DNA from: Candidatus Nitrospira inopinata | GTDB taxonomy: Bacteria > Nitrospirota > Nitrospiria > Nitrospirales > Nitrospiraceae | NCBI RefSeq assembly: GCF_001458695.1 | Contig: NZ_LN885086.1 | Span: 780,001-812,000 of the forward strand | DNA length: 32,000 nucleotides | Direction of reading: 5' to 3' | Part shown: one piece after another, positions 12,399 through 32,000 of the stretch | Layout: each line of letters starts with the position of its first letter | Numbering within the stretch: the first letter of the stretch is position 1 | Notes under the pieces: model-generated | The model's input: the letters and a program-made list of their open reading frames with translations, nothing else | The model's database searches: none | Told to the model about the DNA's origin: nothing | Translations under genes and position numbers: made by a program

Positions 12399-12455
12399 AC
12401 GCCGACCGGCTCGGCAACATGGCCAAGGCCAAGACCAACAAGGCAACACCAACTG

Positions 12456-14347: not shown

Positions 14348-14775
14348 ACCGATCCACTCATATTGGGTCGCGACGGTGGTGGTCATCTTCCGACGGCGCC
14401 GCAGCCGTGGAATTCGCCTTGGTTCTGCCGCTGCTGCTCTTGCTCACAGTCGGCATGATCGACGCTGGTCTCCTGCTCCATCGCGCCTCGCTATTGAGCG
14501 GAGCGAGCCGTGAAGGGGCCCGCGTCGGCGTCGTCAACGCGACAAGTCGATCAAACGCTCAGTCTATTGAGACAACCGTTCGCTCATTTTTGGCTAGAAC
14601 CGGCGTCTCGTTTCCAGGCTTGCAGGTCACGGTCAGAGGAGCCGGAGGACAACCGGGCACCGAGCTGTCCGTGCTCGTCCGGGCGCCTCATCGATTCCTG
14701 CTGCTCGGCCGATTGGTTCCCGGCGTACCCTCAGAGATCACACTGCGAGCCTCGACCGTCATGGCCATTGAATAA
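14344..14775 (+). CDS. tadE: TadE-like pseudopilin
   Basis: 143 aa with an ATGA start/stop overlap with the upstream gene. The N-terminal motif SDG|AAAVEFALVLPLLLLLTVGMIDAG is the TadE-family prepilin-like leader plus helix. Confidence 0.8.
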   Translation: MNRSTHIGSRRWWSSSDGAAAVEFALVLPLLLLLTVGMIDAGLLLHRASLLSGASREGARVGVVNATSRSNAQSIETTVRSFLARTGVSFPGLQVTVRGAGGQPGTELSVLVRAPHRFLLLGRLVPGVPSEITLRASTVMAIE

Positions 14776-14796
14776 AATAAGAGGAATGGAGAGGCG

Positions 14797-15816: not shown

Positions 15817-15831
15817 GAGGAATCTTCCACG

Positions 15832-16683
15832 ATGAAGGTGCCCAACCAACCGACTTCCCCCAGTCCACTCCCTTCCTCCACTCAGCTCATCTGTGTGATG
15901 GGCGCCAAGGGCGGCGTCGGCACGACGACCGTGGCCGTCAATCTGGCCGTGAGCCTCCGCCACCGCTTTTCCACCACGGTGCTGCTATTGGACTGGGACT
16001 TTGCAGGCGGCACAGCCGCACCGTTGCTCGGTGTCACGGCTCGCTATTCGCTTCGCGACCTACTCAATCGCCCAAGCGAATGTGATTCGTACTCCTTCTT
16101 GCGGTCCCTCTCCGAATCTTCTTACGGCGTGTGCGTGCTTCCCAATGGTCATGAGGGATGGCAGCCACCGGCCGGATCTTCGACCCAGCTCGACCACCTG
16201 GCCCAATTGGCGGTCCAAACAAATTCCCTGATCGTGGCCGATATCGGGCGAGCTTCTGGTGAGCATGCCGCGCCCATCCTCAACCGTGCCACGACTGTTG
16301 TCTTGGTTTCCACACCGAATGTGGAAGCGATGCTTCGCGCGGGCCGGATGGGGTGGATGGTCGATTCGTCGCCCCTTCAAGCAACACGCCGCCTGTTTGT
16401 CGTCAATTGTGCACGGGATGCTGACCGACCCGTGCTTACGGAGGCTCAGCGGCAGTTGCGCCGGCGGATCGACCTGGTGATTCCGCGCGATGATAATCGT
16501 GTCACCCTGGCCGCTGAACGGGGCCAACCAGTCATGATTATGGCGGCGACCTGCCCCTTCTCACAGGCGATCCGTAAGCTGGAAGGCCTCACCCTGGGAA
16601 CGGACGGCGATCAGGCTGCGGGCGCGGAATCGTCGTGGTCCCATCGGCTGTCTTCCTGGTTTCCTCGGAGGAAAGCGGCATGA
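15832..16683 (+). CDS. cpaE: CpaE/TadZ-like ParA/MinD-type ATPase, short form
   Basis: 283 aa with SD AGGAGG upstream. The deviant Walker A VMGAKGGVGTTTVAVNLA begins at about residue 22. It sits directly upstream of cpaF with an ATGA overlap. Confidence 0.8.
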   Translation: MKVPNQPTSPSPLPSSTQLICVMGAKGGVGTTTVAVNLAVSLRHRFSTTVLLLDWDFAGGTAAPLLGVTARYSLRDLLNRPSECDSYSFLRSLSESSYGVCVLPNGHEGWQPPAGSSTQLDHLAQLAVQTNSLIVADIGRASGEHAAPILNRATTVVLVSTPNVEAMLRAGRMGWMVDSSPLQATRRLFVVNCARDADRPVLTEAQRQLRRRIDLVIPRDDNRVTLAAERGQPVMIMAATCPFSQAIRKLEGLTLGTDGDQAAGAESSWSHRLSSWFPRRKAA

Positions 16684-18008
16684 TGTCGTCGGCGCCTTCC
16701 CCCTCGGTCGGAGCAAGCAGCCATCCTGGCAATGATCTCTCGGCCCTCCAAGAGCAGGTGTACCGAGCGTTGCTCACCCGCCTCGATGTGGCGCACCTCG
16801 CCCAACTGGACCGTGAAAGCCTGGAGATGGAACTCGCCATTTCCACGATGGCGATCCTGGAGTCACAAGGCACCGCGCTGCGCACGGATGAAATCCGACG
16901 GATCGTCGAGGCCATCCGCAGCGAGGTGCTGGGGTACGGTCCCTTGGACGTTTTGCTCAATGATCCTTCTGTCTCCGACATCCTGGTCAACGGCGCCACG
17001 CGCGTCTATGTCGAACGGGGTGGCCGTCTCCAAGAAACCGAGGTGAGATTTCGTGATGACACGCACCTGCGCGACGTGATCGACAAGATCGTGGCCCAGG
17101 TCGGTCGTCGGATCGATGAATCGTCTCCCATGGTCGATGCCCGCTTGCCGGATGGCTCACGGGTCAACGCGGTGCTGCCGCCGCTCGCGCTTGACGGACC
17201 GGTGCTCTCGATTCGCAAATTCGTCAAGGACCGGCTCTCGTTGGCCGACTTGATCGCCAAAGGCAGCTTGGTGCCTCCGATGGGAGACTTTCTCGCCGCC
17301 GTCGTCCGCGCCCGGCGCAATGTCGTCATCTCCGGCGGGACCGGCTCCGGCAAGACGACTCTGCTCAACATGTTGTCCGAAAATATTCCGCCGACCGAGC
17401 GGATCATCACGATCGAGGACGCGGCGGAATTGCAACTGCGCCAGCCCCATGTCGTCCGTCTGGAGACCAGGCCGCCTAATCTCGAGGGACAAGGTGAAGT
17501 CACGCAGCGGGACTTGGTGCGCAATTGTCTGCGCATGAGGCCGGACCGAATCATTCTGGGCGAAATCCGCGGCGCCGAGGCGCTGGACATGTTGCAGGCG
17601 ATGAACACCGGTCATGACGGATCGCTGGTAACCGTGCATGCCAATTCACCGACCGACGCGATGAGCCGGATCGAAATGATGGTGGCCATGGCGAATGTCT
17701 CCTTGCCCCCAGCGGTCGTCAAACAGACCATGGCCTCCGCTCTTCACATTGTTGTCCAGGTCTCGCGGCTCTCTGATGGGACGCGCAAGGTCGTGGGCAT
17801 TCACGAAGTCGTCGGCATGAAGGACAACTTCATTGCGCTTCAAGAATTATTCCGATTCGAACAGCGCGCTGTCGATGAGACGGGCCGGGTGCAGGGGGGC
17901 TTTGTCTCGACCGGCAATCGCCCTCAGTGCTTGCCATTGTTGAGGGCCCAGGGGCTTCGTGTCTTAGACGAGTGGTTTCGGCCGCAAGAATACCCTCTTC
18001 CGACCTGA
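16680..18008 (+). CDS. cpaF: Tad secretion ATPase CpaF/TadA (T2SSE family)
   Basis: Walker A ISGGTGSGKTTLLN, Asp box ITIEDAAEL, Walker B RPDRIILGEIRG, His box GHDGSLVTVHANS. The start was chosen at ATG 16680, which overlaps the cpaE stop. The track ORF starts at 16635. Confidence 0.95.
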   Translation: MMSSAPSPSVGASSHPGNDLSALQEQVYRALLTRLDVAHLAQLDRESLEMELAISTMAILESQGTALRTDEIRRIVEAIRSEVLGYGPLDVLLNDPSVSDILVNGATRVYVERGGRLQETEVRFRDDTHLRDVIDKIVAQVGRRIDESSPMVDARLPDGSRVNAVLPPLALDGPVLSIRKFVKDRLSLADLIAKGSLVPPMGDFLAAVVRARRNVVISGGTGSGKTTLLNMLSENIPPTERIITIEDAAELQLRQPHVVRLETRPPNLEGQGEVTQRDLVRNCLRMRPDRIILGEIRGAEALDMLQAMNTGHDGSLVTVHANSPTDAMSRIEMMVAMANVSLPPAVVKQTMASALHIVVQVSRLSDGTRKVVGIHEVVGMKDNFIALQELFRFEQRAVDETGRVQGGFVSTGNRPQCLPLLRAQGLRVLDEWFRPQEYPLPT

Positions 18009-18047
18009 TGCCATGATGCCGTCGGCCGAGACGTTGACTGTAAGATC

Positions 18048-18896
18048 ATGACACCGATCCTCATCGCTATCGGAGTCGGGTGTTCCACCACGTTGCTGTG
18101 GCTCGCCGGCACCTTGCTTCTTGGCGGCTCGCGACGAGTTCCTCCTCTCAAGCTCGCCGAGAGCCCGGAGGCTCATGAGAGAGCTGGCGTGATGAGCGTG
18201 ATGAGATGGTTCGGATCGATGCTGCGGTTCGGTCGGTCGAGCAATCCAGGTTCCGGTACCCAACAGGAGGCAGACCAACCAGGATGGTCACGGCGGATTG
18301 ATACGCTCGTCACTCTCTGCGCCCACCCCTCCGCCGTTTGGAAGAGCCGACGGCGGCTACGGCGCATCCGCGAGCAACTCCCCGACGCCCTGGAGGTGAT
18401 GGCCCGCGCGCTCCGCGCCGGCCATGCCGTGCCCACCAGCTTGGCCATGGTGGTCGAAGAGAGTGCCGATCCGCTCCGCCGTGAGTTCGCCCTCGTCGTC
18501 GAGGCTATGCGATTTGGAAAGAGCTTGCCCGAGGCCCTTAAAGAACTGGCCTCGCGAGTGGACGTGGAGGAAGTGCGGTTCTGGGTTACCTGCCTTTTGA
18601 TTCAACGAGAAACAGGGGGAAGTCTCCCCCACATGCTGGACGAGGTAAGTCGGTTGATCCGCGCGCGCATGGAATTCGCCGCCAAAGTGAAAGCCGTCTC
18701 GGCCGAAGCGCGATTTTCCGCGGTGGTGCTGTCCGGCCTGCCATTGGTGGTGGGTGGATTGATCAGTGTGATCAATCCTGAGTACCTCTCGCCCCTCTGG
18801 ACCACCTCTGTAGGGCAGGCGATGGCAGCAACAGCACTAGGCCTGATGGGGTGCGGCATCATCGTCATGCGCCGCATGACACGCATCAACTTGTAG
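18048..18896 (+). CDS. tadB: Tad inner-membrane platform protein TadB (T2SSF domain)
   Basis: 282 aa. It has an N-terminal TM, a T2SSF-like cytoplasmic domain (LPDALEVMARALRAGHAVPTSLAMV...FGKSLPEALKELASR) and C-terminal TM helices. Confidence 0.85.
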   Translation: MTPILIAIGVGCSTTLLWLAGTLLLGGSRRVPPLKLAESPEAHERAGVMSVMRWFGSMLRFGRSSNPGSGTQQEADQPGWSRRIDTLVTLCAHPSAVWKSRRRLRRIREQLPDALEVMARALRAGHAVPTSLAMVVEESADPLRREFALVVEAMRFGKSLPEALKELASRVDVEEVRFWVTCLLIQRETGGSLPHMLDEVSRLIRARMEFAAKVKAVSAEARFSAVVLSGLPLVVGGLISVINPEYLSPLWTTSVGQAMAATALGLMGCGIIVMRRMTRINL

Positions 18897-18956
18897 GGAC
18901 ATCTTACGCCGTCGAGAGGAGAACGCACCGTCTGGTCCCATGATTCACAACGCTGG

Positions 18957-19934
18957 ATGGTATCAGCGATGATGTCCTCAAACCCACCCGCTGAATGGCT
19001 AATTGTAGGCCTGGCGCTGGCGACGGTCGCCTGTTGGACCGGTCTTATGTTAATCGGCCAGGAAGCGGTCCGCCTGCGCCGCTGGCGGCGCCTCTTGCAG
19101 ACCATCCGCACTCCCTGGAACTCGATCGTCCATCCCCCCTCTTGGCAGGTGCAATTGATTCAGCTCATCCAGCGGGTTGGCACCGCAGGCCTTCGCTGGA
19201 TGTCCCCTATCCCTGCCAAGTGGGCTGACCTCATCACCCGCAGTGGTTATCGACGACCTGACGCCACGGCAATTTTGCTCGGCTTTAAACTCCTTGGCGT
19301 AGCCATAGGACTTCTCATCAGCTTGATTGGTCTTTTGTTGGCAAGCCTGAGCGCGGACTGGAACGATGAGATGCTCAGCCTGTTTGCGCTCGGTGGTGTT
19401 CTAACCCCTATCGGCTGGTTCATCCCCGACTGGTGGCTCCGCTATCGGGCGAACCGGCGACAGCAGCGGCTTCAGCGCAGCATACCGGATTTTCTCGATC
19501 TGCTCCTCGTCACAATCGAAGCAGGGCTTCCACTCTCCGCCGCGCTCGATCGTATTGCGCGTGTCTTGGGACTCACTCACCCAGAATTGGGTCAGGAGCT
19601 GCGGCAATTGGTCTTTGATCTCAGGACAAGCCGCTCGCGCGCCGCGGCCCTTCGTGCCTTTGCAGCCCGTACCCAGGTGGACGCCATCGTGTCGCTTGCC
19701 AGCGTTCTTATCCAAACCGAGCGATTTGGCGTGAGCCTGGCTCGCACCCTGCGGCTTCACGCCGAAACCCTACGCCGCAAACAACAGCTCCATGCCGAAG
19801 AGTTGGCTGGGGCTCTACCAGTGAAGCTGTTGTTTCCCCTGATCTTCTTCATCTTTCCCGCCATTTTCGTCGTGCTCCTGGGGCCGGCGGTGGTCCAGGG
19901 CATCGAGACCCTTCGGTCCATGCTGACGCCATAA
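18957..19934 (+). CDS. tadC: Tad inner-membrane platform protein TadC (T2SSF domain)
   Basis: 325 aa. The T2SSF-like domain reads IPDFLDLLLVTIEAGLPLSAALDRIA...ERFGVSLARTLRLHAETLR, flanked by TM helices. It is paralogous in layout to TadB. Confidence 0.85.
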   Translation: MVSAMMSSNPPAEWLIVGLALATVACWTGLMLIGQEAVRLRRWRRLLQTIRTPWNSIVHPPSWQVQLIQLIQRVGTAGLRWMSPIPAKWADLITRSGYRRPDATAILLGFKLLGVAIGLLISLIGLLLASLSADWNDEMLSLFALGGVLTPIGWFIPDWWLRYRANRRQQRLQRSIPDFLDLLLVTIEAGLPLSAALDRIARVLGLTHPELGQELRQLVFDLRTSRSRAAALRAFAARTQVDAIVSLASVLIQTERFGVSLARTLRLHAETLRRKQQLHAEELAGALPVKLLFPLIFFIFPAIFVVLLGPAVVQGIETLRSMLTP

Positions 19935-23616: not shown

Positions 23617-25086
23617 TTAGGAAGAACAACTCACGACCAGGTGTTTGCCCCAACTGGGGGGAGCCGCCGCGTAGGCGTCCATGCCAGGCTGGTCATCGTA
23701 GGGCCGCCGGATGAGAGTCGCCAGACGATCGATTTCGGAGAAATCCTTCTGCTGGGCCTTTTCGATAGCGAGTTGAGCCAAGTAATTCCGCAAGACGTAT
23801 CTCGGGTTGACTCGGTTCATCCGAAGACGCCGCTCATCGTCGCGACTATGCTCGCTTCTCAATCGCTTCCGGTACCGAGCGGCCCAGTCATCGAACCGTT
23901 CACGATTGACAAAGAGATCCCGAAGGGCATGGTTCTCACAACCCTCAACGGAAGAAAATGATCCAAGCGTTCGAAAGGCGAGGGTGTAATCGACATGACT
24001 TTCGTGGAGCAGGTTCAGAAACTCGTCTATCAAAGAGTGGTCGCCAGCCTGTTCTTCAACGAGCCCCAATTTCGCGCGCATGAGTCCGAGGTATTTGTCC
24101 TGAAACAGGCGATGATAGTGATCCAGTGAAGCCTTCAAGGCTTCCTTGGCGACCAACGGTGTCATCGCCTGAGCCAAACAGCCCAAGTTCCATAACCCAA
24201 TCGCCGGCTGTTGGTGGAAGGCATAGCGGCCGTTCACGTCGGAGTGGTTACAGATGAACGCCGGATCATAGTCGTCCATGAAGCCGAAGGGCCCATAGTC
24301 GAGCGTGAGACCAAGAATCGACATATTGTCTGTATTCAAGACACCGTGGGCCCACCCGACGGCCTGCCATTGGGCGATCAGGGCTGCGGTGCGCTCGACC
24401 ACTTCACTGAACAACCGCTCGTACCGGTCGACCGCACCGGCCAAATGGGGAAAATGACGACCGATGACGTAATCGGCCAACACTTTCAGATGCTCATGCT
24501 GCCGGCGATAATAAAACACCTCGAAGGTCCCAAACCGCACGTGGGAGGGAGCCAGGCGCAGCAGCATGGCGCCGGTTTCCACTTGCTCCCGATAGACCGG
24601 GTCATCACTGCCGACCACGCAGAGCGCTTGGGTGGTGGGAATGCCTAACCCCTCCATGGCGATGCAACAAAGATATTCACGGATGGCCGATCGCAGCACC
24701 GACCGACCATCGCCATCTCGCGAAAAGGGTGTCCGCCCCGCCCCTTTGAGGTGCAAGTCCCACCGTTCCCCTCGTTCGTTCAACACTTCACCTAAGAGCA
24801 TCGCGCGACCGTCGCCAAGTTGCGGCACATAGATCCCGAATTGATGGCCCGCATACAACATGGCCAGCGGCTCCATGCCGGAGAGTAACAGGCCGCCACC
24901 GAAGAGTTGCGCAAACTCAGGTCGTGCCGCTTCTTGGGGATCAAGGTCGATCAACGATGCCGCCTCGGCATTGGATGCGACCACCAGGGGCGGGGAGGCA
25001 AAAGGCATGGGGGCCAGTTTTGCGTAGAAGGCCTCCGGCAGGCGCGCATAGGTGTTCTCGAAGACCAGTTGCTCAAGGGATCGCAT
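23617..25086 (-). CDS. selO: protein adenylyltransferase SelO (YdiU/UPF0061)
   Basis: 489 aa. Family-typical blocks are LAMLYAGHQFG...QLGDGRA, DLHLKGAGRTPFSR.GDGR, REYL...AM..LGIPTT, HVRFGTFE and GVLNTDNMSILGLTLDYGPFGFMD. Confidence 0.95.
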   Translation of the reverse strand: MRSLEQLVFENTYARLPEAFYAKLAPMPFASPPLVVASNAEAASLIDLDPQEAARPEFAQLFGGGLLLSGMEPLAMLYAGHQFGIYVPQLGDGRAMLLGEVLNERGERWDLHLKGAGRTPFSRDGDGRSVLRSAIREYLCCIAMEGLGIPTTQALCVVGSDDPVYREQVETGAMLLRLAPSHVRFGTFEVFYYRRQHEHLKVLADYVIGRHFPHLAGAVDRYERLFSEVVERTAALIAQWQAVGWAHGVLNTDNMSILGLTLDYGPFGFMDDYDPAFICNHSDVNGRYAFHQQPAIGLWNLGCLAQAMTPLVAKEALKASLDHYHRLFQDKYLGLMRAKLGLVEEQAGDHSLIDEFLNLLHESHVDYTLAFRTLGSFSSVEGCENHALRDLFVNRERFDDWAARYRKRLRSEHSRDDERRLRMNRVNPRYVLRNYLAQLAIEKAQQKDFSEIDRLATLIRRPYDDQPGMDAYAAAPPSWGKHLVVSCSS

Positions 25087-25171
25087 TGGTCCACTGGATC
25101 ATGTGGATCATGGGAGAGCATGACAGGAGAAAGCTATCACCCGTGAGCCTTGGACAACGTCACACCTCACG

Positions 25172-25516
25172 TCATCGAACCACGGGTGGAACTTCCCGGT
25201 CCATGACAAACACAAAGATCCGCTCGCTGATCGGCACGTTGATATCGGTAAACACCGAGAGAATCCGCGCCCCCGTAATGTCGCTCAACTGTTCGCACAG
25301 CTTGTCCCGCCCCTGTGCAAACAAATTCTCCCGCAGCCGCTTGACCATCTCGACTCCTTCAGGCGTTTTGGCCAACTGGCGTTCGGCCGGCGTCAAGACC
25401 CCCTTCAAGCGGACGACGACAAGATCACGCACAATAAAGGCACGGACCTCGTCCGGCCCCCGCCCCATGAACTCCTGTTCAAACTTGATGACGGCGTTTC
25501 GGATCGCGTTTTCCAC
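25172..25516 (-). CDS. DUF2294 protein (MpsC-like, Na-translocating system protein family)
   Basis: 114 aa. IRNAVIKFEQEFMGRGPDEVRAFIVRDLVVVRLKGVLTPAERQLA...ITGARILSVFTDINVPISERIFVFVM matches the DUF2294 pattern as I remember it. Confidence 0.8.
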   Translation of the reverse strand: MENAIRNAVIKFEQEFMGRGPDEVRAFIVRDLVVVRLKGVLTPAERQLAKTPEGVEMVKRLRENLFAQGRDKLCEQLSDITGARILSVFTDINVPISERIFVFVMDREVPPVVR

Positions 25517-25661
25517 GAGTCACCGGCGCAGGATTATAAGTCGAACGTTGGAGAGAAAAAAGGTTCTTTCGATGCCGGACACCTCCATCTTTCATGCAGC
25601 GCCTTTTAGTGCCTTCGAACTACCAGCGCACGATCTTGAGGCCTAATCCGCTGATTCGCGC

Positions 25662-25688
25662 TTGACGCCGCGTCATTTGGCCTATTAT
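25662..25688 (+). promoter_or_regulatory. candidate sigma70-type promoter for the SbtA-like gene
   Basis: TTGACG (25662-25667) and TATTAT (25683-25688) lie in an AT-rich divergent intergenic region. The spacer is only 15 nt, which is suboptimal. It would give a leader of about 200 nt. Confidence 0.25.
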
Positions 25689-25891
25689 GCATCGCACAGG
25701 CTCGAGATACGGTCATCCCACCTCTCAGAAAAAACGGTCTTGGAGAAAACGTTGGATAGAAGGCATGATCGCGTATAAACACCAAGTTAAAATACCATAG
25801 GTTCAGTTACCCAAAGAACCTGGCAAACGATATGTCACGGACGCGTTGAAAGAGGTACCGCCGTCGTAGCCTTACCAAGAAGGACACATTC

Positions 25892-27100
25892 ATGCTCGAA
25901 CAATTCCTCGATAACTTCCTTCACAATCTTTTCAAGCCCTTGCTGCTTTTCTTCTATCTTGGTTTCTTGGTTCCATTGCTCAAGGTTCCTTTTGAGTTCC
26001 CCTATGCAATTTACAAGGGGCTCATTATCTACCTGCTGATCTCGATCGGATGGCACGGGGGCGAAGAATTGGCGTCTCTGTCCGCGGCGGACTTCGGGCG
26101 TGCCAGCGGGTTCATGATCGTGGGGTTTATAACCAATCTCGTAATCGGGATTGTTGCGTACGCTGCGCTTCGCCAGACAAACATTCGTCAAATCGACGCG
26201 GCGGCAGTTGCGGGCTATTACGGCTCCGACTCAGCCGGAACATTCGTCACTTGTCTGGGCGTCTTGACGGCCTCCAACATCGCTTACGCGGCGTACATGC
26301 CGGTCTTGCTCGCCGTCATGGAAATCCCCGGCTGTCTGGTCGCTCTTGCGCTTGTTGCCCGAATGCGGGAAACCGGTCTGATGGACGCGTTGGGAAACAT
26401 GCCGGGGGAGCCCGGCTATGATCCTTCCGCAAAACGCATGGATTGGAACGGCCAGATCGACGAACTTGACGAACTCGATGAAACCAAAGGTTCCCGAGTG
26501 ACAACATCCAGCCCCTCTCGTTCGGTGGAGATTTCAAAACCGAACGATACCGTCAAAGCCTCTGGGATCTTCAGCAAGGGAGTGCTCCACGAAGTTTTTC
26601 TGAATTCCGGTCTGTACTTGTTGTTCGGCGGTATCGTGATCGGCTTCGTGTCCGGCCTGCAAGGCACGAAGGTGACGGGCACCCATGATCAATTATTCGT
26701 ACAGTTGTTCCCTGCGATCCTAAGCCTTTTCCTTATCGAGATGGGCATGACGGCCTGCAAGCGACTCCAAGACGTGCGGACGGCGGGCTGGAAATTCGTG
26801 ATGTTCGGCCTGATCGCCCCTAATGTCTTCGCTGTCTTCGGCATTCTGATCGCGCACGGATACAGCGCGTTCCTGGGGCATCCATTTGAAATCGGCACGT
26901 ACGCTCTTTTCGCCGTTCTCTGCGGATCGGCATCGTATATCGCCGTTCCCGCGATTCAGCGACTCGCCATTCCCGAGGCAAGCCCGACCCTGGGATTGGC
27001 AGCTTCTCTCGGTCTGACATTTTCCTACAATGTCACGATCGGCATTCCGCTCTACATCATGATCGCCACGGTCATTTCCACGGCAATACCGGTTCAGTAA
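25892..27100 (+). CDS. SbtA-family (Sbt_1/DUF897) sodium-dependent bicarbonate transporter-like permease
   Basis: 402 aa with GAAGGA 8 nt upstream. It has two 5-TM halves around an acidic cytoplasmic loop (IDELDELDETKG). Blocks align with cyanobacterial SbtA as I remember it: AVAGYYGSDSAGTF, LAVMEIPGCLVALALVA, LSLFLIEMGMTACKRL and GSASYIAVPAIQRLAIPEASP. Confidence 0.85.
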   Translation: MLEQFLDNFLHNLFKPLLLFFYLGFLVPLLKVPFEFPYAIYKGLIIYLLISIGWHGGEELASLSAADFGRASGFMIVGFITNLVIGIVAYAALRQTNIRQIDAAAVAGYYGSDSAGTFVTCLGVLTASNIAYAAYMPVLLAVMEIPGCLVALALVARMRETGLMDALGNMPGEPGYDPSAKRMDWNGQIDELDELDETKGSRVTTSSPSRSVEISKPNDTVKASGIFSKGVLHEVFLNSGLYLLFGGIVIGFVSGLQGTKVTGTHDQLFVQLFPAILSLFLIEMGMTACKRLQDVRTAGWKFVMFGLIAPNVFAVFGILIAHGYSAFLGHPFEIGTYALFAVLCGSASYIAVPAIQRLAIPEASPTLGLAASLGLTFSYNVTIGIPLYIMIATVISTAIPVQ

Positions 27101-27132
27101 GTTTGAAAGAAGAATGAAATGGAAAACCTTCA

Positions 27133-27159
27133 GGCATCGGAACATGCCGCAATCTTTTT
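27133..27159 (+). terminator. weak hairpin + T-run after the SbtA-like gene
   Basis: ggcat (27133-27137), loop cggaac, atgcc (27144-27148), then gcaatc + TTTTT (27155-27159). The stem is only 5 bp. Confidence 0.2.
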
Positions 27160-27327
27160 GGCACTCGACGGCCACAAGGGGTTCGCCGAGTTATGGTTCG
27201 GCAATTCGTCGTTCTTCTGCGAATCCTCTTTCAGAGGCTCTGTGCTTTCAAAGAGGGCGACCACACAATTTGCATGAGTTTTGCCTTCATGCTGTGGGAT
27301 AACCCAAAAGGGAGGCCGGACATCGCT

Positions 27328-28476
27328 GTGAATTTGTCATGGTTGAGGCAAAGAAGCCCAAATGTCGCTCGATACCGGCGTTGCGGACACCTGGCCGACT
27401 CACCAAGCCCTTTACGACAAACTTGCCCCATAGTAAACGCTCCTGCGACAATCCTGTCACAATTCATCAAGTTGCATGGTCTGGCAACAAGTCTGCTCTT
27501 TCTCCTCTTGGGTACTGCATCTCCCGCAATGGCCGTGCCTCCCAATATCGGCTGGTCCGTCACAAGCGGGGGGTCGTTGTTCTATACCGATGATGTCGCT
27601 CTCTTTTCGGCCACCCGACGATCAAGCCTGGATGGTGATCCCTCACAGCCTGTCTTGGACGTCTCTCGGACCGGCATCGGCAAAGACATGGTCTTCGAGC
27701 CGTACGTCCGCGTATCCAAGTTGCTTCCATCTTCCTTCGGAGAAACAGAGCTTTCAGCGCGGGTGCGCGGATTTGTCTATGCGAAAAACCCCGAGTTCAG
27801 CCAAGGCTCGGTGTATCTCGAAGCCATCCACGGCTTCACACCCCAGACGATCCTCAGACTCAGATACTTCACAGCTCCTGATCAACTGCTCGGACAGACC
27901 GAACTGCATGGATCCGAAGCGAACCTCCAAGACATGCGTGTTACTTCCCATCTGGGTACCATCCGGCTGGATCATCGCCTCTCCGAACATTGGGAAATCC
28001 AACTGCTCGGACGGGCCGGGATTCGCCGTTTCAATGACCCTTTTGCCCATCGCGATACCTTGTTGTGGCGGGTTGGCCCGCATCTTTTGTATCACGTCAA
28101 CCACCACGCAAGGGTGATTCTGGGCTATCACTATGAGCAAGGTCTGGCCGAAGGACGCCACGAGATTGAGCTTCATGATGACGTTTCCTATAGACATCAC
28201 TTCGCGTCCATCGGCCTCGAGATGGACCTGTTGGAACATTTGGAGCTCGAATTGGACTTTCATTACGAGCGCAACAACTTTACGACCGGCAATCCGGAGG
28301 ACGAGCGGTTTGACGGGCATGAAAACATCTTCATCGGAAGTGGCAGACTTTCCCTGCAGGTGACCGACCATGCTGCCCTGACCCTCACGGTTCAACGATC
28401 CAATCGCAACCAGAATTTTCACCAGACGCATGACCATAACACCAATGTCTCGCTGGGAGTGATCTATCGGTTTTGA
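27328..28476 (+). CDS. histidine-rich outer-membrane beta-barrel protein
   Basis: The signal-like segment is GLATSLLFLLLGTASPAMA|VPP. Amphipathic beta-strands alternate throughout, and the C-terminus VSLGVIYRF-stop is an OMP-type terminal aromatic. The start is ambiguous: ATG 27193, GTG 27328 (GGGAGG 12 nt upstream) or TTG 27472 just before the signal peptide. Confidence 0.6.
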   Translation: MNLSWLRQRSPNVARYRRCGHLADSPSPLRQTCPIVNAPATILSQFIKLHGLATSLLFLLLGTASPAMAVPPNIGWSVTSGGSLFYTDDVALFSATRRSSLDGDPSQPVLDVSRTGIGKDMVFEPYVRVSKLLPSSFGETELSARVRGFVYAKNPEFSQGSVYLEAIHGFTPQTILRLRYFTAPDQLLGQTELHGSEANLQDMRVTSHLGTIRLDHRLSEHWEIQLLGRAGIRRFNDPFAHRDTLLWRVGPHLLYHVNHHARVILGYHYEQGLAEGRHEIELHDDVSYRHHFASIGLEMDLLEHLELELDFHYERNNFTTGNPEDERFDGHENIFIGSGRLSLQVTDHAALTLTVQRSNRNQNFHQTHDHNTNVSLGVIYRF

Positions 28477-28500
28477 CCACTGCGCGCTGGAGGGTGAGCC

Positions 28501-28608
28501 ATGAGCACTTATGAAGAGGGATGGCGACGTTATGAAACCCATGGTTGGTCTGAGAATCAGATCCCGGAACATGGACTTCTGACACCTTCAACAGATGCTT
28601 GGTCGTGA
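28501..28608 (+). CDS. candidate 35-aa Trp-rich micro-protein
   Basis: It is not in the ORF track. The sequence is MSTYEEGWRRYETHGWSENQIPEHGLLTPSTDAWS. SD GGAGGG lies at 28489-28494, 6 nt before the ATG. Its stop is 3 nt before the next gene's ATG. No homology was recognised. Confidence 0.3.
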   Translation: MSTYEEGWRRYETHGWSENQIPEHGLLTPSTDAWS

Positions 28609-28611
28609 CTA

Positions 28612-29196
28612 ATGATGCTCCGCAGCAACGATCCTCACCTTCAAGACCTCCGGAGGAGGAGCCTCTTGTTTAGAACACTGACGTTCGCAGCCCTCTGCTG
28701 CTCGCTCGTGGCTTGTCATCGTACGTTCGGCATTCCCAGAGATCTGGTGAGGGATCTGCCTGCATTGGCCTCCGTTCGATCCGTGTACATCGAGGACTTG
28801 ACCCATGGGGAAGACCCCCATCTTGTGGAGGGATCGGACCTCGTCAAAGAAAAGATCAACCAAAAGCTGACCCAATCTGGCCGCTTTGCGATCGTGGATC
28901 GTCCGGATCTGGCCGATGCCCTGTTGACGGGCGTGGCCGGTTTTCAACGGTGGTACTTTGGGATGGAGAGTTTTTTTGGATTGGAGGGCAGCCTCAACAC
29001 CCAATATGCGGGGATTGGCATGGTTCGCCTCCTTGATGCGAAAACCAAACGACCCATCTGGACTCACGAGTATGAGACAGGTTTGTTCCATCCGACCCAA
29101 CCGGTGGTGGACCGGGTCGCCAACCAGATAGCCGAGAAATTGCTGGCTGATGCGGCTCTTGCGGCAGAGCGAGGGGCCTCTCCGCCCCGGCAATGA
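28612..29196 (+). CDS. hypothetical lipoprotein
   Basis: 194 aa with the lipobox SLVA|C after RRRSLLFRTLTFAALC. The mature domain (...QSGRFAIVDRPDLADALLTGV...) resembles small periplasmic lipoprotein folds, but I cannot name a family. Confidence 0.6.
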   Translation: MMLRSNDPHLQDLRRRSLLFRTLTFAALCCSLVACHRTFGIPRDLVRDLPALASVRSVYIEDLTHGEDPHLVEGSDLVKEKINQKLTQSGRFAIVDRPDLADALLTGVAGFQRWYFGMESFFGLEGSLNTQYAGIGMVRLLDAKTKRPIWTHEYETGLFHPTQPVVDRVANQIAEKLLADAALAAERGASPPRQ

Positions 29197-29327
29197 ATCG
29201 GCGCTCTCTTGAGCCCGCTTCTTGAACCGTCCCCACAACTTTTTTCATGCGAACCAGCAGTTGTGAGAGGCTTTCTCTGGCTTCTCTATGACCCGCCGGC
29301 TGAGGCTCTTACGGGGGAGTTGAGAAA

Positions 29328-30338
29328 ATGGGGGGGCGTAATTATAATCCTTCCGCTATGTTGTTAGCTTCAAAAGGGATGACAACAACCGTTTTTGAGC
29401 ATGGTGACAACATGATCCATTTCAATCCTGGACACCGATCAACTTTGCTCGGACTGGCGACTGTATTGTTGGGAATGCTGATCGCTACTCCTTCCCAAAG
29501 TCTTGCCGAGATGCCGAAACATACCGAGACATGCGTGGCAGTCAGTGAACAGGACATTGCCGCTCTCTTTGATCGTTGGAATGAGTCCCTCAAGACCGGT
29601 GATCCCCATAAGGTCGTCGCAAATTATGCCCCAAAGTCTGTCCTCCTCCCGACCCTGTCGGGCAAGGCCCGTTTCACGCCGCAAGAAAAGGAGGACTATT
29701 TTCATCACTTCCTTCAGAATCAGCCAGAAGGACGCATTGATTCCCGAACCATCGAACTTGACTGCAACATGGCCATCGACGAGGGGCTTTATACTTTTGC
29801 CTTTAAGAAGACCGGCGCCGTCGCAAAGGCTCGATATACGTTTGCCTACAAGTGGGACGGCAAACAATGGTTGATCACGAGCCATCATTCGTCGGCATTG
29901 CCCTCTGAACAAACCCCTCTGGACGAGCCTGTCCGTGCTGTTGCACAGCATGCAGAAGTGTGCGTAGCAGTCAGCGAAAAGGAAATCGACGCTCTGCTTG
30001 AGCGGTGGAAGGACTCTCTCCAGAGCGGGAATCCTCATAAGGTGATCGCTCACTACGCCTCTAAATCCGTCCTTCTTCCATTCTCTTCAATGAAACCTCT
30101 CTTGACGCTCGACGAGAAGGAAGAGTACTTCCGTCATTTTCTCAAGGAAAAGCCGCTGGTCCGCATCAACTCCCATACCATCGAACTGGATTGCAATACG
30201 GCCATCAATGAAGGGTTCTATACCTACACCTTTCAAAAAAGCGGGCGGATCGTGAACGCGCGATACAGCGTCGTGTTCAAGTGGGACGGCCTCCAATGGT
30301 TGATCACGAGCGATCATTCATCAGTCTTGCCCCGTTAA
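29328..30338 (+). CDS. secreted protein with two tandem iota-carbonic-anhydrase-like (CaMKII-AD / SnoaL-NTF2-like, COG4875-type) domains
   Basis: 336 aa with SD GGGGAG 8 nt before ATG 29328. An alternative start is ATG 29412 (MIHF...). The signal peptide is STLLGLATVLLGMLIATPSQSLA|E. Each of the two gapless homologous domains ends in WLITS(H/D)HSS.LP, which is like the HHSS motif of iota-CA family members as I remember it. Confidence 0.8.
   Translation: MGGRNYNPSAMLLASKGMTTTVFEHGDNMIHFNPGHRSTLLGLATVLLGMLIATPSQSLAEMPKHTETCVAVSEQDIAALFDRWNESLKTGDPHKVVANYAPKSVLLPTLSGKARFTPQEKEDYFHHFLQNQPEGRIDSRTIELDCNMAIDEGLYTFAFKKTGAVAKARYTFAYKWDGKQWLITSHHSSALPSEQTPLDEPVRAVAQHAEVCVAVSEKEIDALLERWKDSLQSGNPHKVIAHYASKSVLLPFSSMKPLLTLDEKEEYFRHFLKEKPLVRINSHTIELDCNTAINEGFYTYTFQKSGRIVNARYSVVFKWDGLQWLITSDHSSVLPR
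29532..30332 (+). repeat. intragenic tandem domain duplication (2 x 372 nt, offset 429 nt)
   Basis: Residues 69-192 (nt 29532-29903) and 212-335 (nt 29961-30332) align without gaps. I count 76/124 identical residues by hand (about 61%). Confidence 0.9.
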
Positions 30339-30712
30339 TCGACTGTACAGGGCCGAACCTGCCGAGAGCGAACTGATTTCATGAGCGACTGCTCGCGGCC
30401 TCTATCGAGACAGCGGGTACGACAACACTGTCTCAGGCCACACTAAGCCAGCCACGGGATCTTTCCCGCAAGGTTCCTCATAGAAAAACTGACACAGAAC
30501 GATTGAAAGGCACGGCTCTACGGCATGCCGTCTTTGGTGCGTTTGATGCGCCTCTTCTTCCTAAATACAAAGAAAGGGGCGGCATTTGTCTGGTGACGAG
30601 ATCGCTGATTCGCAGATGTAGATTTTTTTTTGACAAGCGAATGTAAACTACAGCCCTTCCAATCGTAGCTGCACCGCTTCGACCGCTGGTTTATACGGAA
30701 GGGGGAGAGATC

Positions 30713-31564
30713 ATGCTCATCATGCTGTGGGAATTCATAGTTGTTATGGCATTGTTACTGCCGGCAGCAGGTTTGTATGCAGGGGAGGGGGAAGCACTCA
30801 CATGGAGTTACGATGGCGAACGGGGGCCGCTGCATTGGGGGAAGCTTAGCCCGGAGTTTGCTCTCTGCGAGAAAGGTATGGCGCAATCGCCGATCGATTT
30901 ATTGCGTAGCCACAGGATTGCGCTGGATGAAATCCAGTTTTCCTATAAAGATGCGCCGTTCCACATCGTCAACAATGGGCATACACTGTCGGAAATCGAA
31001 CCCCTTTCAGAAACGGCCAAATCTCGATACCCCAGACATGGGCAGACCGTCTTGCACTTCGATAAGGACAGCACCATCGTGTTCGACGGAGACCTCTACC
31101 TCCTGGAGCAATTCCATTTTCATGCTCCCAGCGAGCACACCATCGATCAGAGACACTATCCCTTGGAGTTGCATCTGGTTCACCATAACGAGCGTCATGA
31201 AGCGGCCGTCGTCGCCGTGTTCATCCAGGAGGGACAGCACAATCCGTTTTTTGAGAAATTCCTGGACCATGCTCCTCACAAGGTCGGAGAATTCATTGAG
31301 GACAAGGAACATCTGATCAATCCGGAGACGCTCTTGCCCAAAAGCCGGACCTACTACCGTTATTACGGATCCTATACCACCCCGCCGTGCCATGAAGGCG
31401 TCGTATGGGCCGTGATGCATGAACCCATTGAAGTTTCAACCGAACAGGTTCGACGTTTTCGGGCCCTCATGGGACATGACAACGCACGACCGACACAACC
31501 GTTGCATAAGCGTTTTGTTTTGGACTCCAGCCTGGCACTCCCAAACGCTCATACCAAACGTTAA
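30713..31564 (+). CDS. alpha-class carbonic anhydrase, periplasmic
   Basis: 283 aa with SD GGGGGAG upstream and a signal peptide (LLLPAAGLYAG). Motifs are WSYDGERGPLHW, SPIDL, NNGHT, the Zn ligands in QFHFHAPSEH and ELHLVH, and YYRYYGSYTTPPC. The Cys pair (LCEKG / PPCHEG) is typical of bacterial alpha-CAs. Confidence 0.95.
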   Translation: MLIMLWEFIVVMALLLPAAGLYAGEGEALTWSYDGERGPLHWGKLSPEFALCEKGMAQSPIDLLRSHRIALDEIQFSYKDAPFHIVNNGHTLSEIEPLSETAKSRYPRHGQTVLHFDKDSTIVFDGDLYLLEQFHFHAPSEHTIDQRHYPLELHLVHHNERHEAAVVAVFIQEGQHNPFFEKFLDHAPHKVGEFIEDKEHLINPETLLPKSRTYYRYYGSYTTPPCHEGVVWAVMHEPIEVSTEQVRRFRALMGHDNARPTQPLHKRFVLDSSLALPNAHTKR

Positions 31565-31595
31565 CGCTCGCGGCTCTCTTTAGAAAGGCTCTCGA

Positions 31596-31619
31596 TCCGC
31601 CGCCCCACAGGACGGCGGA
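31596..31619 (+). terminator. hairpin downstream of the alpha-CA gene
   Basis: tccgccg (31596-31602), 10-nt loop, cggcgga (31613-31619). No U-tract follows. Confidence 0.2.
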
Positions 31620-31739
31620 CGGCCGCTCGTACCCTCCTCGATGTCAGGCAATCTGCCGAGGCCCCCCTACGTTTGGGGCATTGCGGAACCATCCGTGGAT
31701 CGGTCATAACTGGCGCGTCCCTGGAGTACAGGCCCATCG

Positions 31740-31964
31740 ATGGCTCAAATCATCAATCTCAGCGAACACGCCAGCGACGAGGACGTTCACTATCTGACGT
31801 CTCTTCTGATTTACCATCTGGTCGAACGTTGCGGGGGGCAGTTGCAATTTACCCTTCAAGAGGTTCGACAGATCCGCGACAGCCTCGCGACCAAGATGGT
31901 GCAAATCCAGCTCGGCAACGACGTGCGCCTCCGCATCATCGACCGCCTACCGGAGCTGCGGTAG
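31740..31964 (+). CDS. hypothetical 74-aa protein
   Basis: The ORF has plausible composition (MAQIINLSEHASDEDVHYLTSLLIYHLVERCGG...). It has no convincing SD (GGAG lies 13 nt upstream) and I recognised no family. Confidence 0.3.
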   Translation: MAQIINLSEHASDEDVHYLTSLLIYHLVERCGGQLQFTLQEVRQIRDSLATKMVQIQLGNDVRLRIIDRLPELR

Positions 31965-32000
31965 CCGACGACTCTTTTGGAGCTTCCTCCCCTCCAGAGG

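Follow-up and report, generated by a model that had tools for sequence, protein, structure and literature searches.

A modular DIC acquisition island, with an outer-membrane barrel and lipoprotein at its core, as the probable setting of an Sbt-family permease in Candidatus Nitrospira inopinata

Nitrospira fix carbon by the rTCA cycle. The described systems closest to the locus studied here are the cyanobacterial SbtA-SbtB (PDB 7CYE/7EGK), the DAB/DAC pumps (DabAB, equivalent to MpsAB) and the 'DIC toolkit' of chemolithoautotrophs, which combines an inner-membrane transporter with extracellular or periplasmic carbonic anhydrases (CAs) (Scott et al. 2024, PMC10880623; survey of 2026, PMC13147460). 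These surveys give gene counts per genome; the 2026 survey includes N. inopinata and reports many DIC transporter and CA genes for Nitrospirota. The 2024 review makes no mention of the outer membrane, and a description of the island, of its barrel-lipoprotein core or of a link to MpsC was not found in the searched parts of either text. In Staphylococcus aureus, mpsC lies beside mpsAB. It is dispensable for MpsAB, its deletion has no phenotype, and outside staphylococci it was reported not to be co-located with mpsAB (PMC6689103). In Synechocystis, the gene of a probable porin, slr0042, belongs to the cmpABCD transcription unit (PMC4195498). In PelB-PelC and LptD-LptE, a barrel gene is followed by the gene of a small lipoprotein. 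Iota-CAs (Thalassiosira pseudonana LCIP63, B. territorii BteCAiota, X. campestris 3H51) have a CaMKII_AD/NTF2-like domain, an HHSS motif and a signal peptide. The bacterial enzymes are described as single-domain proteins, and their catalytic residues have been defined (PMC8132391).

The locus of Ca. N. inopinata, a complete nitrifier, occupies 25.2–31.6 kb of the window, which is the whole stretch of 32,000 nt that was analysed. A divergent MpsC gene is followed by genes for an Sbt_1 permease, a barrel, a lipoprotein, a tandem iota-CA and an alpha-CA:

25172..25516, minus strand: DUF2294/MpsC-family small soluble protein, 114 aa (PF10057, E 1e-33)
25517..25891, no strand: divergent spacer, holding a promoter-like element
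25661-25688, plus strand: promoter-like element CTTGACGC-N14-TATTAT
25892..27100, plus strand: Sbt_1-family (SbtA-like) inner-membrane permease, 402 aa (PF05982 over the whole profile, E 3e-93)
27472 (TTG) or 27328 (GTG)..28476, plus strand: predicted outer-membrane 14-strand beta-barrel (N-termini of homologues, AF2 model)
28666..29196, plus strand: outer-membrane-type lipoprotein, 176-aa precursor, lipobox L-V-A-C (no Pfam match)
29320..29348, plus strand: sigma70-like promoter candidate TTGAGA-17-TATAAT (11/12), just 5' of the iota-CA gene
29412..30338, plus strand: secreted tandem iota-CA of the COG4875/CaMKII_AD type (PF08332 twice, E 9e-25)
30713..31564, plus strand: secreted alpha-CA with signal peptide (PF00194, E 9e-44)
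31740..31964, plus strand: conserved ORF of 74 aa, no assigned function (no Pfam match)

The gene module is real, with corrections. Pfam and homology searches bore out all family assignments of the first-pass annotation, and the spacer to the divergent DUF2294/MpsC gene is exactly 375 nt long, as it had stated. Its report that sbtB is absent also held: P-II, DabA, SulP and beta-CA homologues were searched for in the whole window, and none was found. Three start codons lie 3' of the longest-ORF starts. For the barrel, a start at 27193 was ruled out, since homologues begin at a signal peptide; GTG 27328 or TTG 27472 is the likely start. The lipoprotein starts at TTG 28666 and not at 28612, preceded by a strong Shine-Dalgarno sequence (GGAGGAGGAG), and the iota-CA most likely at ATG 29412 and not at 29328, according to orthologue comparison. 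A 35-aa micro-ORF at 28501-28608 had been counted as part of the module. Of the relatives, only one with 99% identity keeps it unbroken; a 93% relative has a broken copy, and it is absent elsewhere. Not being conserved, it is probably no gene and was discarded as spurious. Export of barrel, lipoprotein, iota-CA and alpha-CA fits the signal peptides, lipobox and conserved Cys pairs seen on sequence inspection. Three carbon-related families and MpsC are packed into 6.4 kb, and other genomes show this combination again at the orthologous locus. The arrangement is not due to chance. A literature search did not find expression, transport or enzyme data for these genes.

Other Nitrospira have DAB pumps and P-II, SulP and/or Sbt at the same locus, together with the barrel-lipoprotein pair (OMP-Lipo). 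The locus is bordered by Amino_oxidase-Ysc84-Abhydrolase_2 at one end and by orf74-DUF2490-RF-1-SDR-NUDIX-GCV_T at the other. All island variants were verified by phmmer:

L092: MpsC<->OMP-Lipo-SulP-iotaCA-DabA
L093, L095: PA-DabA-PII-OMP-Lipo-iotaCA, with two or three iota domains
L087: PA-DabA-PII-OMP-Lipo-SulP-HK-RR-iotaCA
L109: PA-DabA-PII-OMP-Lipo-alphaCA-alphaCA
L111: MpsC<->PA-DabA-PII-iotaCA-OMP-Lipo-iotaCA-SulP
L096, L099-L101: further variants from metagenomes

OMP-Lipo is the constant element, with the lipoprotein gene after the barrel gene in every variant; around it, transporters of three unrelated families and CAs of two classes are exchanged. CA sets comprise tandem or triple iota-CAs and/or one or two alpha-CAs, and a divergent MpsC is sometimes present. 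At the corresponding place in the island, L096, L100, L101 and L109 have alpha-CAs orthologous to that of N. inopinata. The conserved synteny expected earlier failed with Sbt as anchor, as Nitrospira with an Sbt of 80–89% identity share none of these neighbours; it held only for the barrel, the lipoprotein and the periplasmic CA, which form the core. The complete part list is limited to N. inopinata-like genomes with at least 93% identity in Sbt. The idea of an envelope-spanning DIC module was strengthened by this comparison, as about 11 different architectures place the barrel and lipoprotein between secreted CAs and inner-membrane DIC transporters. Overall, the initial interpretation as an envelope-spanning carbon module is partly supported.

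The segment is probably the N. inopinata version of a modular DIC acquisition island at one conserved Nitrospira locus. The island is best read as a new variation on the known "transporter plus extracellular CA" toolkit, here with secreted alpha- and iota-CAs. Barrel and PelC/LptE-like lipoprotein would constitute an outer-membrane element, known as gene content only, which may give or organise access of HCO3-/CO2 to the periplasm. There, the two secreted CAs would hold CO2 and HCO3- in equilibrium. This would matter because that compartment receives the protons set free when ammonia and nitrite are oxidised. HCO3- could then be imported by the Sbt-family permease, probably with Na+. In DAB-bearing variants, the periplasmic CAs may instead supply CO2 to the cytoplasmic DAB trap. 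The divergent MpsC would be a shared cytoplasmic accessory or regulatory factor, in place of the P-II/SbtB-type control of other versions.

The signal peptide of the barrel is probably cleaved between AMA and VPP, near 27534/27535, and the C-terminus of the barrel is ...VIYRF. About 280 homologues of this Nitrospira-restricted family were found; all source names shown are Nitrospira or Nitrospiraceae. Pfam matches are weak (OMP_b-brl; PF13505/PF10082). The AF2 model has 14 strands (pLDDT 84.3), and its closest fold is OmpG (E 3e-9, TM 0.64). For the lipoprotein, 49 homologue clusters were obtained, few with an organism name, all of these Nitrospira, and Cys17 of the lipobox is invariant. Its AF2 model (pLDDT 79.8) has a PelC/LptE/TolB-N-like alpha/beta fold, for which Foldseek retrieved PelC/PelBC (E 2e-5, TM ~0.5) and also LptE, CsgG and TolB. 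The order of barrel and small lipoprotein resembles PelB-PelC and LptD-LptE. However, identity is 11–13% at this TM score, the barrels of those systems have 16–26 strands, and their substrates are polymers, not small ions. The Synechocystis cmpABCD unit shares an outer-membrane porin gene inside a bicarbonate transporter unit, but its porin comes from an unrelated family, its transporter is of the ABC type, and a lipoprotein partner or periplasmic CA is missing.

Repeated co-location suggests a role of barrel and lipoprotein in DIC uptake. Alternatively, only Sbt and the two CAs are a DIC toolkit, and the pair is an ordinary Nitrospira porin with its partner, which has long occupied a recombination-prone locus that takes up DIC genes again and again, so that the linkage would be one of position and not of function. 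This is rather unlikely, yet it draws on several observations. Closely related, paralogous OMP-Lipo pairs occur without DIC genes nearby, behind GlnB-GlnA in L088, where the OMP is 69% identical, and behind ClpB in L110. Nitrospira NS4 (L089) has a lone OMP paralogue. In the island, long gaps flank the pair, and it has no conserved upstream motif. A 1-nt insertion frameshifts the barrel gene in two N. inopinata-type assemblies (L003, L006), so the barrel is dispensable at least sometimes. A crude estimate of the charges of lumen residues (+12/-18, net acidic) does not indicate anion selectivity, and the previously proposed entry of HCO3-/CO2 through the barrel is not directly supported. The G+C content of the island, 0.50–0.57 versus 0.61 around it, is consistent with gene turnover. 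Against this reading, the pair has an interior position, between transporter/P-II and CAs and not at the module's edge, in all variants while both sides change. Unrelated Alginate_exp barrels independently adjoin Sbt in Nitrosomonas and marine Nitrospirales, and the cyanobacterial cmp operon contains a porin.

In the alpha-CA, the catalytic set is intact, with equivalents of His94/96/119, Thr199-Thr200 and Glu106, plus a Cys pair. Alignment of HFHAPSEH...HLVH and LTTPPC to the best solved homologue, 6IM0 (E 3e-64), confirmed the Zn triad claimed before. The double iota-CA does have two CaMKII_AD domains, but only domain 1 is canonical (LLPT...Y...HHSS; E 1e-31 against 3H51), with the Thr/Tyr/His/Ser cavity of known iota-CAs. 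In the domain alignment, domain 2 has Phe for the catalytic Thr (LLPF) and DHSS for HHSS. Each domain has a Cys pair. The protein is probably an intramolecular pseudo-dimer of one catalytically competent and one Thr-less domain. It differs from known iota-CAs by its tandem form, extended to three domains in a relative, and by loss of the essential Thr in domain 2 of tandem forms.

Two distinct secreted CAs could also point to a module that mainly serves periplasmic pH/CO2 homeostasis, in which CAs and HCO3- flux through barrel and Sbt buffer the protons from periplasmic oxidation of ammonia, hydroxylamine and nitrite. In Nitrospira, nitrite oxidation takes place on the periplasmic side, as does ammonia oxidation in comammox strains, and in Helicobacter acid acclimation a periplasmic alpha-CA has a buffering role. 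The 2026 survey calls the large DIC arsenal of the slow-growing Nitrospirota 'mysterious' on grounds of carbon demand (PMC13147460). We regard this reading as improbable, as sister genomes carry DAB pumps and P-II at the same locus. As energy-coupled traps for CO2 in the cytoplasm, DAB pumps fit carbon accumulation, not buffering. Moreover, the rTCA carboxylations of an obligate autotroph need both CO2 and HCO3-.

The MpsC-family protein has no predicted TM segment and no homologue among solved structures. Three versions of the island have an orthologue upstream in divergent orientation: the Sbt version (L007, L008), the SulP version (L092) and the DAB version (L111). The attached MpsC is shared with DAB/DAC systems, and sister Nitrospira have Proton_antipo-DabA-P-II at the locus. 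In L111, MpsC is divergent beside DAB, like mpsC beside mpsAB in S. aureus, whereas the N. inopinata island lacks DabA/DabB and has Sbt in that position. Nitrospira thus contradicts the non-co-location of mpsC outside staphylococci (PMC6689103). From the repeated co-location we infer a role of MpsC in DIC uptake. The dispensability for MpsAB in S. aureus (PMC6689103) counts against the link drawn in the first-pass annotation.

The permease shares with SbtA the full-length PF05982 domain, hydrophobic segments on either side of a large central hydrophilic loop (residues ~160–234) and a setting among CCM-type genes. Its sequence is distant, matching SbtA 7CYE in two partial stretches (E 5e-23). 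Of the four residues at which HCO3- docks in cyanobacterial SbtA, S114 and S324 are kept, and Y140 and S327 are replaced by Leu and Ala (PMC8352866). The window lacks sbtB/P-II, though P-II occurs in 9 of 80 Sbt-anchored loci of the subfamily, and N. inopinata uses the rTCA cycle without a carboxysome. Other neighbours in these 80 loci are beta-CA (10), some with a TAT-like signal, SulP (7) and the Alginate_exp outer-membrane barrels (10); these neighbourhoods support the island reading independently. From its sequence, the permease is a candidate Na+/HCO3- importer. Transport of another small anion, or in the other direction, with CAs serving another purpose, is very improbable: the distant, partial SbtA match, both substitutions, invariant motifs peculiar to this subfamily (GYYGSDSAGT, CG.ASYIAVPA) and its frequency in heterotrophic Planctomycetes would allow it, but CAs of three classes, SbtB-like P-II and SulP recur as neighbours, S114 and S324 are retained, and heterotrophs need HCO3- too, as MpsAB in S. 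aureus illustrates.

The gaps between the genes are 227–371, 189, 215 and 374 nt, and the site at 29320-29348 is the sole match of a consensus scan in 25000-32000. A single operon is not established because of these long gaps and the internal promoter-like site; the presumed co-transcription of the gene string is doubtful. The window has a single copy of the element CTTGACGC-N14-TATTAT, against an expectation of 0 from shuffled sequences. Among 111 loci, it matched only the N. inopinata-type L001-L007 plus L008, L091 and L111. The copies of L008 and L111 are located in the MpsC-divergent spacer and oriented toward the transporter genes, and that of L091 is part of an insertion. The leader 3' of the element showed no significant fold and no Rfam match.

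Module membership of the 74-aa ORF is uncertain. Homologues (E 1e-28 to 1e-46) are located at the 3' edge of the island in 10 of the 16 listed island loci. In most variants, this ORF ends the island, immediately 5' of the DUF2490/RF-1 flank.

Candidatus Nitrospira inopinata is a complete ammonia oxidiser. The window's Sbt-like protein has 100% identity to the NCBI protein under this species name, and the flanks agree with contig CZJZ01000007.1 of GCA_001458755.1. The segment at ~25.2–31.6 kb of the window is very probably a toolkit for the acquisition of dissolved inorganic carbon (DIC). ORF listing and Pfam/NCBIfam scans recovered every gene family named in the first-pass annotation, and the profiles Sbt_1, DUF2294, CaMKII_AD and alpha-carbonic anhydrase (PF00194) all matched.

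Genes of the island (window coordinates; CA, carbonic anhydrase; OMP, outer-membrane barrel)
25172–25516, reverse strand, MpsC/DUF2294 (Pfam/NCBIfam scan, E 1e-33)
25892–27100, forward strand, Sbt_1 permease (Pfam E 3e-93, whole profile)
end at 28476, forward strand, barrel (OMP) ORF (weak beta-barrel matches in the Pfam/NCBIfam scan)
28612/28666–29196, forward strand, lipoprotein (no Pfam match)
29328/29412–30338, forward strand, tandem iota-CA (two CaMKII_AD domains, E 9e-25)
30713–31564, forward strand, alpha-CA (Pfam E 9e-44)

The spacer shared with the divergent MpsC gene measures exactly 375 nt, as first described. The reported lack of sbtB also holds: a homologue search of the whole window found no P-II, DabA, Proton_antipo (PA), SulP or beta-CA. 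Since DabA (PF10070) and the Proton_antipo subunit are both missing from the window, the island is not filed as a DAB system, that is, a DabA plus PA CO2 pump. A carboxysome-type CCM was rejected as a class because its defining genes are not in the window. SelO and an Abhydrolase_2 gene lie upstream, and the remainder of the window holds a Tad-pilus locus and sensor kinases. The Tad/Flp locus (11472–19934), whose genes also flank the island in other Nitrospira, looks complete with RcpC/CpaB, a secretin, TadE/G-like proteins, a ParA-like ATPase, a CpaF-type T2SSE and two T2SSF genes. A 74-aa ORF without Pfam match (31740–31964) closes the 3' edge of most island variants; its homologues reach E 1e-28 to 1e-46, and a DUF2490 gene and an RF-1-like gene follow. 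The G+C content across the island (25000–31600) is 0.50–0.57, with 0.50–0.52 in the spacers and 0.52 in both CA genes, compared with 0.607 for window positions 1–22000. This fits a mobile or recombining segment.

Start sites were refined by comparison with homologues. All barrel homologues open with a signal peptide ending in A-x-A in the N-terminal alignment. The N. inopinata leader reads ...LATSLLFLLLGTASPAMA/VPPNIGWS. Because the homologues begin at the signal peptide, the barrel starts at GTG 27328 or TTG 27472 and not at ATG 27193. The lipoprotein starts at TTG 28666, with GGAGGAGGAG ahead of the start codon and MFRTLTFAALCCSLVAC as precursor N-terminus. For the iota-CA, orthologues make ATG 29412 the most likely start (MIHFNPGHRSTLLGLATVLLGMLIATPSQSLA/EMP). 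The first-pass annotation had included a 35-aa micro-ORF (28501–28608). It has a good Shine-Dalgarno sequence and is whole only in a 99% relative; it is broken in the 93% relative L008 and has no counterpart in the other island variants. It was rejected and is probably not a gene.

The barrel and lipoprotein (OMP–Lipo) proved to be the informative anchor for the island in other genomes. OMP–Lipo-anchored islands occupy the same chromosomal locus in other Nitrospira, flanked by Amino_oxidase–Ysc84–Abhydrolase_2 on one side and orf74–DUF2490–RF-1–TPR–SDR–NUDIX–GCV_T on the other.

Island variants at the orthologous locus, re-verified by phmmer (<->, divergent)
L092: MpsC<->OMP-Lipo-SulP-iotaCA-DabA (1452 aa)
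L093: Proton_antipo x3-DabA-PII-OMP-Lipo-iotaCA (three domains)
L095: Proton_antipo x3-DabA-PII-OMP-Lipo-iotaCA (tandem)
L087: PA x2-DabA-PII-OMP-Lipo-SulP-HK-sigma54 RR-iotaCA
L109: PA x3-DabA-PII-OMP-Lipo-alphaCA-alphaCA
L111: MpsC<->PA x2-DabA-PII-iotaCA-OMP-Lipo-iotaCA-SulP (reverse strand)
L096, L099, L100/101: metagenome variants with one alpha-CA, no CA, or alpha-CA + SulP

The three metagenome variants came from a scan with the lipoprotein profile, which gave 13 mostly short loci and is not usable for statistics. The OMP–Lipo pair stays central while the inner-membrane DIC systems, of three unrelated kinds, and the CAs, of two classes, turn over. The conserved unit is the outer-membrane pair with a periplasmic CA, and not a list centred on Sbt. 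The envelope-spanning DIC module proposed in the first pass is partly supported, by the repeated co-location of OMP–Lipo, CA and transporter; its Sbt-centred composition is not. With Sbt as anchor, the expected synteny was not found. The subfamily set comprised 80 genome loci (55–99% identity) from Nitrospira, other Nitrospirales, Nitrosomonas and Planctomycetes and was scanned with the window's proteins. The whole set of island genes occurs only in N. inopinata-type DNA (L001–L007). L008 has it in part, with SulP inserted ahead of the iota-CA and a long DabA after it, and Nitrospira with an 80–89% identical Sbt have none of the island neighbours. On the strength of genomic association, we consider a modular DIC-acquisition island around a constant OMP–Lipo pair the likely reading for Nitrospira. 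Gene content, export signals, catalytic residues and repeated co-location are direct observations. The chances that the outer-membrane pair functions within the toolkit are slightly better than even.

Two further features of the locus concern its ends. The long DabA homologue of L008 (16749–21137) and L092 (14328–18686), about 1450 aa with one predicted TM segment, stands at the island end without a Proton_antipo gene as partner. It may correspond to the 'orphan' cytoplasmic subunit of DAC that a recent survey described for N. moscoviensis and N. tepida (PMC13147460). In the MAG locus L091 (4941–8294), a truncated second MpsC, a DUF3368/UPF0175 toxin–antitoxin pair, a Usp gene and a STAS fragment lie beside MpsC. 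The sister MAG L092 lacks this insert, which indicates a recent rearrangement at the edge of the island.

The barrel family has about 280 members, and each source name shown is Nitrospira or Nitrospiraceae. The structural model of the barrel has 14 strands (pLDDT 84.3), with OmpG as closest fold. The leader ending AMA/VPP, the even strand number and the C-terminal ...YRF are marks of an outer-membrane porin. For the lipoprotein, 49 clusters were found, and the few with an organism name are from Nitrospira; the lipobox cysteine is invariant in 45 homologues. Its model (pLDDT 79.8) is nearest to PelC, followed by LptE, CsgG and the TolB N-domain, with fold matches up to E 2e-5, yet TM scores of only 0.45–0.55. 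All of these are lipoproteins or domains working under or inside outer-membrane barrels. From the strict gene adjacency, the lipoprotein may associate with the barrel.

Several observations weaken the modular reading and bear on the alternative of a bystander porin (OMP–Lipo) at a locus prone to recombination. Paralogous pairs exist outside DIC contexts: L088 (OMP 69% identical) follows GlnB–GlnA, and L110 follows ClpB. Nitrospira NS4 has a more distant OMP on its own. A crude, parity-based estimate of the barrel lumen counted 12 K/R, 18 D/E and 5 His; being net acidic, it gives no support to anion selectivity. In L003 and L006 (runs SRR35204270 and SRR35204271), a single-T insertion, CACCACGC[T]AAGGG at window position 28110 (L002 ~12219), frameshifts the barrel gene in an otherwise identical island. 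Either a loss-of-function allele, natural or of laboratory origin, or a sequencing error common to both assemblies could account for it. With the pair constant through so many exchanges of transporter and CA, a bystander role is rather unlikely, though the strongest of the alternatives.

The modular reading also draws on the two carbonic anhydrases. The alpha-CA matches PF00194 with 150 bits; among solved structures, 6IM0 is the closest relative (E 3e-64), with QFHFHAPSEH, ELHLVH, LTTPPC and NNGHT conserved in the alignment. All three zinc-binding histidines are present, as the first-pass annotation had claimed, together with the Thr199/Glu106 gatekeepers and the proton-shuttle histidine. By inspection, signs of export are a hydrophobic N-terminus aligned to the 6IM0 leader and cysteines in ALCEKG and TPPC. 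Such a cysteine pair is typical of periplasmic bacterial alpha-CAs. The iota-CA matches PF08332 twice, with HHSS in domain 1 and DHSS in domain 2; domain 1 is related to Xanthomonas 3H51 (E 1e-31). Activity requires Thr106, Tyr124, His197 and Ser199 of all2909, and replacing either Thr or Tyr by Ala abolishes it (Hirakawa et al., PMC8132391). The domain alignment shows all four residues in domain 1. Domain 2 keeps Tyr, His and Ser and has Phe in the Thr column, where tandem relatives have Leu. The protein counts as an iota-CA through domain 1 only, because domain 2 is without the catalytic Thr. The 'double iota-CA' of the first pass has one canonical and one Thr-less domain. One active and one degenerate domain are suggested by these residues, and the two probably pack within one chain as the usual dimer does. 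Prokaryotic iota-CAs were described as single-domain (Hirakawa et al., PMC8132391). A search of a representative library, which carries no taxonomy, returned 1876 relatives, and about a third of the best 150 of these 1876 are multi-domain. Unlike the tandem forms with a degenerate second domain, the three-domain iota-CA of L093 (11097–12458, 453 aa) is canonical throughout, with the catalytic Thr and HHSS in all three domains. The module could also serve periplasmic pH buffering; the DAB pumps at this locus in sister genomes make this improbable.

The Sbt permease matches PF05982 with 313 bits (cutoff 27) over profile positions 1–307 of 308. It is a full-length family member with only distant relation to Synechocystis SbtA. 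In SbtA, HCO3- was docked to Ser114, Tyr140, Ser324 and Ser327, a site that is itself a docking model (PMC8352866). The alignment gives S114->S114, Y140->L140, S324->S348 and S327->A351, so that two of the four residues of this modelled site are kept. We infer a candidate Na+-dependent HCO3- importer. With half of the docked residues changed, the permease might carry a different substrate; with carbonic anhydrases, P-II and SulP as recurrent neighbours of the subfamily, this is very improbable.

MpsC, a small soluble protein, matches PF10057 with 116 bits (cutoff 23) and has no TM segment; a search for solved relatives found none. According to Fan et al. (PMC6689103), co-location of mpsC with mpsAB is confined to staphylococci, and S. 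aureus has no mpsC phenotype. The latter weakens the modular reading. Linkage of MpsC to DabA/Proton_antipo was not seen in the window. Counter to the statement of Fan et al., MpsC stands beside DAB in the orthologous island L111 (MpsC<->PA-DabA); it adjoins the SulP version in L092, which has an orphan DabA, and the Sbt version in the window.

In the proposed working, external HCO3-/CO2 would reach the periplasm, possibly via the barrel–lipoprotein unit. The secreted alpha-CA and iota-CA domain 1 would equilibrate CO2 and HCO3- in a compartment acidified by nitrification, and HCO3- would be imported by Sbt. The cytoplasmic MpsC may take the place of a P-II protein, as regulator or accessory. 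In the DAB-type variants, the same periplasmic CAs would feed CO2 to a cytoplasmic trap instead. A more specific version is tentative and has perhaps one chance in a few: the 14-strand barrel and PelC-like lipoprotein as a dedicated outer-membrane DIC gate, interchangeable with Sbt, SulP or DAB and with alpha- or iota-CAs, and MpsC as a DIC-responsive regulator or accessory for all three transporter types. If true, bacterial DIC uptake would gain its first outer-membrane component in this gate, and MpsC a function left hidden by the genetic work in staphylococci.

In soils, waters and treatment plants, Nitrospira dominate among nitrite oxidisers and complete nitrifiers, and DIC is the source of all their carbon. 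The island, many DIC genes in one variable locus around a constant outer-membrane pair, offers a concrete, testable model for DIC crossing all three envelope layers in these globally important nitrifiers. It provides function leads for three uncharacterised families, the barrel, the lipoprotein and DUF2294/MpsC. The swaps of Sbt, SulP and DAB and of alpha- and iota-CA can be used to relate gene content to habitat pH and DIC. Both the thermophile-like alpha-CA and the tandem iota-CA, whose second domain is degenerate, are relevant to CA enzymology and to biocatalysis for CO2 capture. The island is not a new category of system. A DIC transporter working with an extracellular CA is an established idea (PMC10880623). 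An earlier case of an outer-membrane gene within a bicarbonate-uptake unit is the porin of the Synechocystis cmp operon (PMC4195498). A 2026 rTCA survey that includes N. inopinata calls the Nitrospirota arsenal 'impressive' and 'mysterious', and DIC transporters and carbonic anhydrases are described as unexplainedly abundant in Nitrospirota (PMC13147460). The covered portions of PMC10880623 and PMC13147460 hold no description of the island. The former, a 2024 DIC review, nowhere mentions the outer membrane, and neither carbonic anhydrase nor bicarbonate is mentioned in a comparative study of Nitrospirales from 2025. Since, in addition, Fan et al. report no MpsC–DAB link outside staphylococci, the composite of constant barrel–lipoprotein pair, swappable transporters and CAs, tandem iota-CA with degenerate domain and MpsC is undescribed within the literature searched.

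The first-pass annotation had placed the island in one co-directional gene string. The gene order stood; a single operon is not established, because the spacings between the genes are long (in order 227–371, 189, 215 and 374 nt) and a sigma70-like site with 11/12 match to consensus lies inside the island (29320–29348). Both points weaken the modular reading. A promoter-like element, CTTGACGC-N14-TATTAT at 25661–25688, is oriented toward Sbt and unique in the window, with 0 expected. Beyond the N. inopinata-type loci, it is the sole recurring motif of the MpsC-divergent spacers, present in L008 and L111 and absent from L092, and occurs once within the L091 insertion. The search for sigma54 sites (TGGCAC-N5-TTGCW, <=2 mismatches) gave 9 matches versus 14 expected, none convincing. 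Rfam at permissive thresholds had no match in 24900–32000. RNA fold z-scores of +0.74 for the putative Sbt leader and -0.21 for the 374-nt iota/alpha spacer indicate no structure beyond chance. Upstream of the barrel, the sole recurring k-mer, GGAATACTTCGGGAA, was dropped as a common motif because it belongs to the P-II coding sequence, at its 3' end.

The neighbours of the 80 Sbt loci were clustered and Pfam-scanned. A beta-CA is a neighbour in 10 loci, P-II lies directly downstream, as sbtB does, in 9, and SulP is near Sbt in 7; two-component systems also recur. In L009–L012 and L016, Sbt is located just downstream of the beta-CA, with cytochrome bd oxidase subunits I and II between them in L010 and L011. 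The Nitrospira beta-CAs have an RRxFL TAT-like leader (RRQFLAASALLGAAG in L010, which has a longer DUF2294-like ORF further upstream), so that a third CA class is predicted to be periplasmic beside Sbt. An Alginate_exp (PF13372) outer-membrane barrel is found near Sbt in 10 of the 80 loci, from Nitrosomonas and marine Nitrospirales; here an outer-membrane channel has been paired with Sbt independently. It adjoins or lies near Sbt in L020, L022, L025, L036, L037, L040, L042, L051 and L052; the Nitrosomonas loci often include YfdX and a two-component system. One subfamily member (L066) is encoded on the 201-kb plasmid pPOT-2 of Singulisphaera sp. PoT.
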